The translations under genes were made by a program, and so were the position numbers. A stretch of 22,536 bases of DNA from a virus, in UHGV virus genome UHGV-0277527, one strand, 5' to 3'. The notes beneath the pieces are model-generated. The model was given only the letters and a program-made list of their open reading frames with translations. It ran no database searches and had not been told where the DNA came from. This document shows positions 19,217 through 21,962 of the stretch, piece by piece; the first letter of the stretch is position 1; every line of letters starts with the position of its first letter.

Positions 19217-19684
19217 TCATCGAAGGCATTGCGTCCTGATGTATTCCTGAAGCGTTCTCAGTGCTGTTTGGTCGCGGATAATTCCGTCCCGGACACCGAG
19301 AACGTTTCGTCCAGCAACTGGAGAGAGTTCGACGGTGGCATCATTGCCCATGCCGGAGGCGCCGGAGGTTTCGGCTGAGGATGGCACAGGGCATTTTCCT
19401 TTGACGAGCACCCTGCCACCATTATCAAGCTTGCGCCGAAGAGCATCATTTTCAGCTTTCGCATCAGCTAACTCCTTCGTGTATTTAGCATCGAGTGCAT
19501 CAGCAGCACGCTGGCGTTGCTGCATGTCAGTAATGGTAGCGGTCGCCTGCTTCAGCTCACTGACTTTTTTATCTCGCTGTTCTTTGTAGGCGATGGCGTT
19601 ATCACGGTAGTGATTAACAGCCCATGACAGGCAAACGATGATGCAGATAACCAGAGCGGAGATAATCGCGGTTACTCTGCTCAT
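19217..19684 (-). CDS. Rz: Inner-membrane spanin Rz (i-spanin)
   Basis: Track ORF 19217-19696; the start is placed at the ATG at 19684, which overlaps the endolysin stop (ATGA). The N-terminal two-thirds ([31 protein letters not shown]...[16 protein letters not shown]) matches lambda Rz as I recall it; the C-terminal third diverges. Confidence 0.85.
19258..19464 (-). CDS. Rz1: Outer-membrane lipoprotein spanin Rz1 (o-spanin), embedded out of frame inside Rz
   Basis: [21 protein letters not shown]... has a lipobox (MVAG|C) and a proline-rich region ([11 protein letters not shown]), as in lambda Rz1. Lies entirely within Rz in a different frame. Confidence 0.75.
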
Positions 19685-20184
19685 TGTTGCCCCCACAAAC
19701 AGACTTCACGCTCAATCTCACGGCGAGTCATCAGCCCTTTCCATTGCTTACCGCCAGCGTATGTCCAGCGACGTAGCTGGTCACATGCGCCATTGATATC
19801 GCCCTGGTTGATTTTGCGAAGAAGCGTCGATGTTCTGAAATTGCCTGCGCCCACGTTATAGACGAACGAATAAAGAGCGCCGCGCGTTGTTTCCGGTATA
19901 TCGACTTTGATGTACGGGTTAATTTGTCTGGCGACAGTGGCAAGGTCTTTATTCAAGAGTGCTTTGCATTCTGCTTCGGTATACGTTTTACCGAGCATGA
20001 TGTCTTTTCCGGTGTGTCCGTGACATACAGTCCATACACCAACAATATCTTTGTATGGTATGTAGCTAACACCTTCCAGACCATCGTTACCACTTGGTCC
20101 AGTGATTAACACAGATGCTATAGCAATAGCCCCGCCACTTATCGCCGCTATTACGCTATTTCGTAGTGCCGGTGACATTGCCAT
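19681..20184 (-). CDS. R: SAR endolysin (T4-lysozyme-like family, phage 21 R / DLP12 RrrD type)
   Basis: 167-aa ORF. N-terminal signal-anchor-release-type segment ([17 protein letters not shown]) followed by ...[31 protein letters not shown]...; near-identical to the phage 21 endolysin as I recall it. Confidence 0.85.
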
Positions 20185-20359
20185 TCAATCTGTCCTCGCG
20201 CTCTTTGCGCTTGTAGTACCAGTTGATGCCAAATGTGCCGACAGTACAAAGAATACCAATGATGACAGCCCAGTCATTCAGGGAGAGAATGCCACCCATC
20301 GCAGTCAGTCCTCCGAAGCTGTAACTGAACCATTCTCTGATTTTGTCCATACGGTACAT
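20156..20359 (-). CDS. Class II holin / probable pinholin with a dual-start motif
   Basis: 67 aa with two predicted transmembrane segments (Gly/Ala/Ser-rich [17 protein letters not shown], then [20 protein letters not shown]) and a charged C-terminal tail. N-terminus is Met1-Tyr-Arg-Met4. Overlaps the endolysin start by 29 nt. Confidence 0.65.
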
Positions 20360-20652
20360 GCTCTACCCCTTCATTGAGGGGATTTGCTCTATTTAATTAG
20401 GAATAAGGTCGATTACTGATAGAACAAATCCAGGCTACTGTGTTTAGTAATCAGATTTGTTCGTGACCGATATGCACGGGCAAAACGGCAGGAGGTTGTT
20501 AGCGCAGCCTCTTGCCACCCGCTTTCACGAAGCCAGCCATTGCGCTGGTTTTCTTTTATGCAAAGCACACCGCACCGTAGCCACAGCGGATAAGGTGATT
20601 ATTTTGGTCTGTCTGGTATTTGGTTTGATGTGCTTTCAGAAAGTCCGTGCTT

Positions 20653-20689
20653 AAAACGCAAAAAGCCCCGAGCTATTAACTCAGGGCTT
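20653..20689 (-). terminator. Rho-independent terminator about 20-55 nt downstream of the pR' start (likely Q antitermination target, tR'-like)
   Basis: Minus strand reads GCCCTGAG-(7-nt loop)-CTCGGGGC, an 8-bp stem with one G-U pair, followed by TTTTTGCGTTTT. Confidence 0.55.
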
Positions 20690-20713
20690 TATTTAACGAG
20701 TGCATTTATCCAT

Positions 20714-20742
20714 CGTTGAGTCAAATTTACCCAATTTTATTC
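20714..20742 (-). promoter_or_regulatory. Late promoter pR' with overlapping qut site (lambda type)
   Basis: Minus strand reads TTGACT-17 bp-TAAATT-TGACTC-AACGATGG, which matches the lambda pR' -35, -10 and initial transcribed sequence as I recall them. Predicted +1 is about 20707. Confidence 0.75.
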
Positions 20743-20794
20743 AATAAGTCAATATCATGCCGTTAATATGTTGCCATCCGTGGCAATCATGCTG

Positions 20795-21418
20795 CTAACG
20801 TGTGACCGCATTCAAAATGTTGTCTGCGATTGACTCTTCCTTGTGGCATTGCACCACCAGAGCGTCATACAGCGGCTTAACAGTGCGTGACCAGGTGGGT
20901 TGAGTAAGGTTTGGGATTAGCATCGTTACAGCGCGATATGCGGCGCTTGCTGGCATTCTTGAATAGCCGACACCTTTGCATCTTCCGCATTCTTTCTCAA
21001 CAACTCTCCCCCACAGCTCTGTTTTTGATATATCAACCGCACGGCCTGTACCGTGGCAATCTCTGCATCTTGCGCCAGGCGTCGCGGCACTACGGCAATA
21101 ATCCGCATAAGCGAATGTTGCGAGCACTTGCAGTACCTTTGCCTTAGTATTTCCTTCAAGCTTTGCCACACCACGGTATTTCCCCGATACCTTGTGTGCA
21201 AATTGCATCAGATAGTTGATAGCCTTTTGTTTGTCGTTCTGGCTGAGTTCGTGCTTACCGCAGAATGCAGCCATACCGAATCCGGCTTGTGATTGCGCCA
21301 TCCCCATAGCAGCCATCACATCAGTACCGGAAAGAGAGTCAGAAGCTGTAGCCCGTGGTGAGTCGCTCATCATCGGGCTTTTTGGCGAATGAAATTTAGC
21401 TACGCTTTCGAGTCTCAT
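20795..21418 (-). CDS. Q: Late gene antiterminator Q (lambda type)
   Basis: 207-aa ORF MRLESVAKFHSPKSPMMSDSPRATASDS...CRDCHGTGRAVDI...ECGRCKGVGY...; essentially identical to lambda Q as I recall it (zinc-binding Cys cluster present). Confidence 0.95.
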   Translation of the reverse strand: MRLESVAKFHSPKSPMMSDSPRATASDSLSGTDVMAAMGMAQSQAGFGMAAFCGKHELSQNDKQKAINYLMQFAHKVSGKYRGVAKLEGNTKAKVLQVLATFAYADYCRSAATPGARCRDCHGTGRAVDISKTELWGRVVEKECGRCKGVGYSRMPASAAYRAVTMLIPNLTQPTWSRTVKPLYDALVVQCHKEESIADNILNAVTR

Positions 21419-21603
21419 CGTCTTCCCCTCTTGCCCTGTTTGACCATCAGGACGCCGTTAACTATTACGTGACGCTCGCCTTTTCTGTCTCGGTTGTACT
21501 TGAGCACTGTTCCTCTTGCGCAGGAAAGCATCCTCGCCACTTCTGTCTGATTGCCTCGTGTCTGGATAAGAAGCTCTGGTATCGTTTGAATTGTGGCGTT
21601 CAT
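21415..21603 (-). CDS. ninH: NinH-like small DNA-binding protein
   Basis: 62 aa, ...TIPELLIQTRGNQTEVARMLSCARGTVLKYNRDRKGERHVIVNGVLMV, resembling lambda NinH. Its stop overlaps the Q start (ATGA). Confidence 0.75.
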   Translation of the reverse strand: MNATIQTIPELLIQTRGNQTEVARMLSCARGTVLKYNRDRKGERHVIVNGVLMVKQGKRGRR

Positions 21604-21962
21604 ACGTTCTCCAGTTCGGTGATTTTTATTCCAAGCCGTCCGCCTGGTACTTTCACACCACGAATTACGCGAATGTCATCGAATTGCTCGTCGTCTTCCG
21701 CAAATCCGGCGTGGATAAGGGAGTCGAGTAAACCTTTCAGGATGTTGTCGAGGTCGCGGCGGCGGGAGTCTGGAACGTCTGCGATGACTTTGATGCGGAG
21801 TCGTGATTTGGTGAAAATGTCTAACTTGAGTTGGCGGATGATTTGCTGAACGTCTTTTCGGTATTTCTGGCCTTTATCGCTGATGTAGTATTGACTCCCC
21901 CGTCTTCGCCAGTAGGTATTCACCGACGGCGGGTATGGAAGCACAAACTGATATTCGTTCAT
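21600..21962 (-). CDS. rusA: Holliday junction resolvase RusA
   Basis: 120 aa, MNEYQFVLPYPPSVNTYWRRRG...DVPDSRRRDLDNILKGLLDSL...GGRLGIKITELE, matching the E. coli RusA family including the catalytic D-x-D-N region. Confidence 0.9.
   Translation of the reverse strand: MNEYQFVLPYPPSVNTYWRRRGSQYYISDKGQKYRKDVQQIIRQLKLDIFTKSRLRIKVIADVPDSRRRDLDNILKGLLDSLIHAGFAEDDEQFDDIRVIRGVKVPGGRLGIKITELENV

Follow-up and report, generated by a model that had tools for sequence, protein, structure and literature searches.

A probable short-leader late antitermination switch of the P22/HK97 type upstream of an HP1-family holin gene in virus genome UHGV-0277527

The Q protein of lambda forms a nozzle at the RNA-exit channel of RNA polymerase that prevents formation of the terminator hairpin, and by about 15–16 nt the 5' end of the transcript is expected to have passed through the Q-lambda torus. 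Once loaded with Q, polymerase passes over pause and termination sites for thousands of base pairs (PMC9388147). The Q proteins of lambda and P22 are interchangeable (PMC8022706), and in the P22-like phage epsilon34, Q is 98% lambda-like and qut is identical to that of lambda (PMC2629481). In work cited by PMC7547250, the late promoters of lambda, 21, phi80, 82 and P22 are described as giving rise to short RNAs under antitermination control. Phages L and Sf6 carry tRNA genes downstream of the late promoter (PMC8022706), and several non-homologous holin and lysin types have already been published for P22-like phages (PMC2629481).

The control region of P22 is annotated in two records. The curated record BK000583 gives a promoter ('P late or P R''), a qut-like site and the 5' nucleotide of the late RNA, followed by a hairpin at +31 to +59 described as 't late or tR'; antiterminated by gene 23 protein'. 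The same hairpin is labelled 'terminator tR'; terminator tQ'' in record X78401. P22 thus combines a Q-type protein (gene 23) and a promoter with qut with a terminator about 30–60 nt from the start. In lambda, on the other hand, tR' is found at about +194, and the late region includes orf-64 and the S/R lysis genes.

The window analysed here is the whole stretch of 22,536 nt presented as UHGV-0277527, and the features described below are on its minus strand unless stated otherwise. The ORF list and Pfam matches place rusA at 21600–21962 and ninH at 21415–21603, followed by a gene for a lambda-type Q antiterminator of 207 aa (20795–21418). A non-coding interval of 435 nt (20360–20794) separates Q from the lysis genes, which specify a class II holin of 67 aa (20156–20359), a SAR endolysin of 167 aa (19681–20184), the spanin Rz (19217–19684, with its ATG at 19684) and the spanin Rz1, embedded in Rz in another frame (19258–19464). 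The rest of the window resembles the P22-like podoviruses HZ41, APC_JM3.2, IME10 and P22 in its portal, terminase, coat and injection genes. This makes the source element a temperate phage or prophage of the P22-like type with an enterobacterial host, most likely E. coli. The control region upstream of the lysis genes is, with high confidence, the late antitermination switch of this element in the short-leader version found in P22, HK97 and HK022.

The Q protein is identical to that of lambda at 206 of 207 residues (99.5%), and matches Pfam PF03589 with 192.4 bits (E = 1.2e-57; cut-off 26.7). From the Q stop codon through AACGATGG, alignment of the window with lambda shows base-for-base identity. 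A consensus scan placed the late promoter pR' (P late) at 20724–20752, with a −35 hexamer TTGACT (20752–20747), a spacer of 17 nt and a −10 hexamer TAAATT (20729–20724). Taken by itself the scan performed near chance, with 3 sites against 2.7 expected; the promoter call is meaningful because the sequence is identical to lambda pR', not because of the scan. Between the two hexamers lies the Q-binding element (QBE), or qut string, TATTGAATAAAATTGGGTAAA (20746–20726), which is identical to that of lambda and also to the qut string given in the annotations of the mEp and HK phages. Homologous promoter and qut sites are annotated in HK140 and P22, and a qut site in Emek. The initial annotation of this DNA had described Q and the pR' core as identical to lambda and the Q–qut pair as lambda-type, and these observations bear it out.

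Transcription would start at 20717 (+1), as judged from lambda and from the P22 feature 'P late RNA 5' nt'. A −10-like element, AACGAT, occupies +1 to +6 (20712–20717) and is identical in sequence to lambda, where an element of this type has a role in the sigma-70-dependent pause (PMC9388147). The base past the expected pause site differs, being C16-A17 in the window versus C16-G17 in lambda, and this change is common to all of the short-leader phages. Given this difference, the position or strength of the pause may not be the same as in lambda.

The interior of the Q gene also carries, on the plus strand, what resembles the antisense units paQ of lambda and a23 of P22. A CII/C1-type box (TTGCGAGCACTTGC) and a terminator-like hairpin followed by CGGGCTTTTT occur at 21118–21131 and 21355–21373, and their relative positions within Q match those of the a23 promoter, the C1-binding site and the a23 terminator in BK000583.

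A predicted intrinsic terminator of the P22/HK97 type (t late or tR'; 20652–20690) lies very close to this promoter. Its hairpin (20690–20662) has 13 pairs and a 3-nt loop (AAU), and is followed by a T-run, TTGCGTTTTA, that extends to 20652, so that the whole spans +28 to +65. The RNA from +1 to +73 has a folding energy of −25.3 kcal/mol, compared with −14.0 ± 2.8 kcal/mol for dinucleotide shuffles (z = −4.1), and none of 200 shuffled sequences was as stable. The terminated RNA is predicted to be about 58–62 nt in length, in keeping with the earlier statement that this leader is much shorter than the 194-nt 6S RNA of lambda. The stem does not vary in any of the homologues aligned, and the terminator as a whole is 100% identical in Emek and HK97, 97.7% in HK140 and 95% in P22. 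The Emek record carries an annotated rho-independent terminator at the homologous position. In the comparison with P22, the promoter region (96%) and terminator (95%) are retained while the remaining leader has fallen to 61–69% identity, a selective conservation that is the pattern expected from a working terminator.

Conservation of this kind, with the segment from +1 to +65 far better conserved between the window and P22 than the remaining leader, could also mean that the RNA of about 60 nt is itself the functional product. According to this reading, the pR' leader RNAs of P22, HK97, HK022 and the present prophage would be trans-acting sRNAs in lysogens, with host or phage targets. There is a precedent in StxS, a regulatory sRNA from the pR'–tR' unit of Shiga-toxin phages, and the text in which it appears suggests antiterminated phage promoters as a source of sRNAs, with the short late RNAs of lambda, 21, phi80, 82 and P22 as cases in point (PMC7547250). 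The predicted fold of the leader, with a 5' stem, an A/U-rich linker, a strong terminator hairpin and a U tail, would suit such a role. However, the conservation of +1 to +65 is fully accounted for by promoter, pause and terminator function, the U tail is interrupted (UUUUUGCGUUUU), and the leader has no Rfam family match (best E = 0.82, far below the gathering score). A scan of 20100–20900 against Rfam at permissive thresholds gave chance-level matches only (NsiR1, E = 0.82; snoU85, E = 0.091), again far below gathering scores. An sRNA function is accordingly considered unlikely.

BLAST of the window against lambda gives a first block (21428–20695) of 96.9% identity. It is followed by a short-leader segment of 162 nt (20533–20694) in place of 405 nt of lambda (44610–45014), the latter containing lambda tR' and orf-64. 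A third block, an untranslated lambda-like segment of 169 nt upstream of the holin gene (20364–20532; lambda 45015–45181), is 95.9% identical to lambda and 100% identical in Emek. The holin and endolysin genes that follow have no similarity to lambda by BLAST. The initial annotation had the transcribed region leaving the lambda sequence and then reaching a hairpin with a T-run. The hairpin is present, but the departure is not a clean break: from +9/+10 the two sequences diverge by point differences, at 5 of 18 positions between +10 and +27, and similarity is lost at +24.

The leader between the terminator and the holin gene contains several further features. In HK633 (NC_019719, 36956–36996), only 41 nt match the window (20660–20700), covering the terminator at 100% identity, and the sequences are divergent beyond; a recombination or mosaic junction among lambdoid late leaders thus seems to lie at the 3' edge of the terminator. 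A terminator-like hairpin on the plus strand at 20529–20552, in the middle of the leader (GAAGCCAGCCATTGCGCTGGTTTT then CTTTTATGCA), would oppose late transcription. Its stem is kept only partly in HK97 and P22, and the resemblance to a terminator may have arisen by chance.

A search for tRNA genes gave none, either in the window or in the loci of lambda, Emek and HK140, and the late leader is thus without the tRNA genes reported for phages L and Sf6. Part of the leader that is found only in lambda (44866–44952) gives matches of 82–98% both in phage P7 and, over stretches that bear the annotation tRNA-Lys or tRNA-OTHER, in rV5-like phages. ARAGORN, run on lambda, predicts no tRNA at 44866–44952. 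This segment may be a relic of tRNA genes like those in the late leaders of phages L and Sf6.

The lambda-like segment upstream of the holin gene ends at ...CAAATCCCCT, as the initial annotation had noted, and in the alignment this end falls within the loop of a short hairpin (CCCC-N8-GGGG, 20366–20381; palindrome list and alignment) that immediately precedes the holin start codons. The sequence at the same position is CCCCTTATTGGGG ahead of S in lambda and CCTCACGGTCGTGAGG ahead of gene 13 in P22. A stem-loop is thus kept ahead of the dual-start codons of non-homologous holins, with the lambda breakpoint in its loop. The hairpin is placed like the sdi structure of lambda S, and by analogy with that structure it could have a regulatory role.

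An open reading frame of 51 codons is also present in the leader (20413–20568), and if it were a real small late gene then the leader would be partly coding. It has a full-length match to phrog_22751 (8.3e-41) and is annotated, as hypothetical, in HK140 and in some other phages. The start codon is GTG, however, and there is no Pfam match to the product. The corresponding sequence of HK97 has 2-nt and 1-nt deletions inside the frame, while that of P22 has frame-breaking indels and the stop position is absent; lambda shares only the 3' two-thirds and has no gene annotated there. With its frame broken by indels in both HK97 and P22, the ORF is probably non-coding, and a real gene here is less likely still than a regulatory leader RNA. 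The broken frames suggest an annotation passed from record to record.

Searches of sequenced phages found the short-leader switch to be widespread. The stretch from Q to the endolysin gene gave megablast matches in 183 phage records. The closest is Salmonella phage Emek (vB_SemP_Emek, JQ806763), which is collinear with the window from the start of Q to the endolysin gene (21418–19678) at 97.8% identity without gaps. Over the interval 20360–20794, identity to Emek is 98.4%, again with no gaps (promoter region 96%, remaining leader 97.5–100%), to HK140 96.6% (98% and 96–98%), to HK97 91.3% (98% and 87–90%) and to P22 75.2%. The full unit of Q, leader, holin and endolysin genes is found in Emek, the Klebsiella phage phiKp_30 and phage PS34 at 94–98% identity. 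A second group, which includes HK97, HK022, HK140, the mEp phages, Sf101 and others, is collinear from rusA/ninH/Q to just before the holin ATG (21650–20364), with 96–97% identity for HK97, HK022, HK140 and the mEp phages. Emek differs from the window in a few point differences, two of them in the QBE region, where the window is identical to lambda, in carrying ninZ among its upstream nin genes where the window has rusA–ninH, and in an Rz region that diverges downstream.

The prevalence of the two types of leader was compared with a 168-nt query for the short-leader segment and a 416-nt query for the lambda alternative, counting matches with at least 80% coverage. At least 89 phage records, from hosts belonging to Salmonella, Escherichia, Shigella and Klebsiella, contain the short-leader segment, and so do 261 of the 5426 complete E. 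coli genomes; phages of Hafnia, Cronobacter and Pantoea give partial matches. The lambda segment occurs in 24 phage records, including lambda, lambda imm434 and HK630, and in 218 complete E. coli genomes. The idea that the lambda leader is a rare outlier is therefore only partly true, as it holds for phage records (24 versus 89) but not for E. coli genomes, where the two segments have similar frequencies. The short leader and the lambda (194-nt 6S) leader are two common alleles of one control region.

The same searches bear on the origin of the parts. The initial annotation had assigned the terminator an origin different from that of the Q protein acting on it, and had presented the region as a mosaic, a reading to be given up if the whole interval proved collinear with one known phage. 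The first proposal is not sustained, because the short leader is the usual partner of a lambda-type Q, being found in P22, HK97, HK022, HK140, the mEp phages, Sf101 and Emek, and the second fails with the gap-free alignment to Emek over the whole interval. Although the region is a patchwork when compared with lambda alone, and its QBE is identical to that of lambda where those of Emek, P22 and HK97 differ at two positions, a recent and unusual recombinant, in which the Q/qut of lambda was newly joined to a foreign terminator and a phage 21 lysis cassette, is very improbable, being refuted by collinearity with single known phages, with the Q–leader–terminator unit spread over several host genera, the unit of Q, leader, holin and endolysin whole in three phages, and the holin not of the phage 21 type. 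An unusual pairing of Q with its terminator, as the initial annotation implies, is not borne out. By its sequence, the Q switch described here is of the standard P22/HK97 type, already sequenced and annotated in known phages.

The lysis genes downstream of this switch differ from those of several of the phages that share it. In P22 the holin is of the lambda S type (gp13, 108 aa) and the lysozyme (gp19) is a different one, and in HK97, HK022, HK140 and the mEp phages the leader is followed by a lambda-type S holin and an R transglycosylase. In the window, the holin belongs to the HP1 family (PF16080, Phage_holin_2_3), matched over residues 5–53 with 75.1 bits against a cut-off of 28.8, and it also matches phrog_20. 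The gp13 proteins of PS119, ST104, SPN9CC and other P22-like phages of Salmonella have the identical sequence (100%). The score with the family of P21 holin S (PF04971, Phage_holin_2_1) is 19.5 bits, below the cut-off of 26. The essD–rrrD–rzpD region of DLP12 in E. coli K-12, which we take to be 21-like, served as a proxy for the 21-type cassette, and BLASTP of the holin against DLP12 EssD gave only 8 identities in 27 residues (E = 0.024). The score below cut-off and the marginal similarity to EssD rule out the S21 family. Of the statement that an S21-like pinholin replaces lambda S, what stands is that the replacement is a small dual-start holin of class II; its assignment to S21 does not.

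The N-terminus of the holin carries the dual-start motif M1-Y-R-M4-D-K, and its hydropathy profile shows a weakly hydrophobic stretch at about residues 11–27 and a strongly hydrophobic one at about residues 29–48. As these features are found together with a SAR endolysin directly downstream, the protein is a probable pinholin. The holin of Haemophilus phage HP1 reportedly acts as a pinholin with a SAR endolysin (PMC7312051). HP1 shares the same Pfam holin family, but the relation is distant and at the level of the family, and both host and phage type differ.

The endolysin is of the phage 21 R / DLP12 RrrD type, being near-identical to R21 and RrrD. It matches PDB entries 4zpu (RrrD; 1.2e-106) and 3hde (8.8e-106), with residues 3–167 aligned to residues 1–165, and the alignment covers the Gly/Ala-rich N-terminal SAR segment. 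It also matches PF00959 (glycoside hydrolase 24). The ORF begins two codons (M-A) before the methionine aligned to residue 1 of R21/RrrD and overlaps the holin stop codon by 29 nt; the longer form is annotated in Emek. Nucleotide similarity to rrrD–rzpD of DLP12 (90.7%) does not begin before 20179, where the endolysin gene starts, and BLAST of DLP12 against the leader and Q detected no similarity. The spanins Rz and Rz1 are identified by matches to PF03245 and PF06085 and to phrog_13 and phrog_3198. Phage 21 and DLP12 have the same layout, in which the SAR endolysin gene directly follows that of a small dual-start class II holin, but their holins belong to the S21/EssD family, whereas the one here is of the HP1 family. 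The description of the cassette as phage 21-type is therefore correct for the endolysin and incorrect for the holin. Set against the reference phages, the locus appears as a mosaic of three parts, a lambda/HK-type Q and leader, an HP1-family holin and a 21/DLP12-type SAR endolysin with Rz, a combination that by the same comparison is already present in Emek, phiKp_30 and PS34.

A mechanism can be proposed by analogy with lambda and P22. RNA polymerase would initiate constitutively at pR', with +1 near 20717, and would pause via sigma-70 at AACGAT. Without Q, transcription would end at the terminator (+28 to +65) to give the leader RNA of about 60 nt. When Q is made from the early-right operon, it would bind the lambda-identical QBE between the −35 and −10 hexamers and, together with NusA, load on the paused polymerase, where its nozzle on the RNA-exit channel would block the terminator hairpin. 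Read-through would then extend into the remaining leader, the holin, SAR endolysin and Rz/Rz1 genes, and the P22-type virion genes. Such proximity of terminator to promoter is compatible with the mechanism, because threading of the RNA by 15–16 nt precedes the hairpin sequence, which begins at +28. Since Q-loaded polymerase passes over termination sites along thousands of base pairs, a common origin of Q and terminator is not required. The data contain nothing at odds with the reading of the locus as a short-leader switch.

The value of these results lies mainly in correct annotation. The locus is best described as the textbook late switch governed by Q, in the widespread form known from P22 and HK97, and the lysis cassette that it would control is already present in sequenced phages of Salmonella, Klebsiella and E. 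coli. The small holin beside R21-type SAR endolysins in these phages should be annotated as a member of the HP1 family rather than S21. The 194-nt 6S leader of lambda would likewise be better viewed as one of two common alleles than as the norm.
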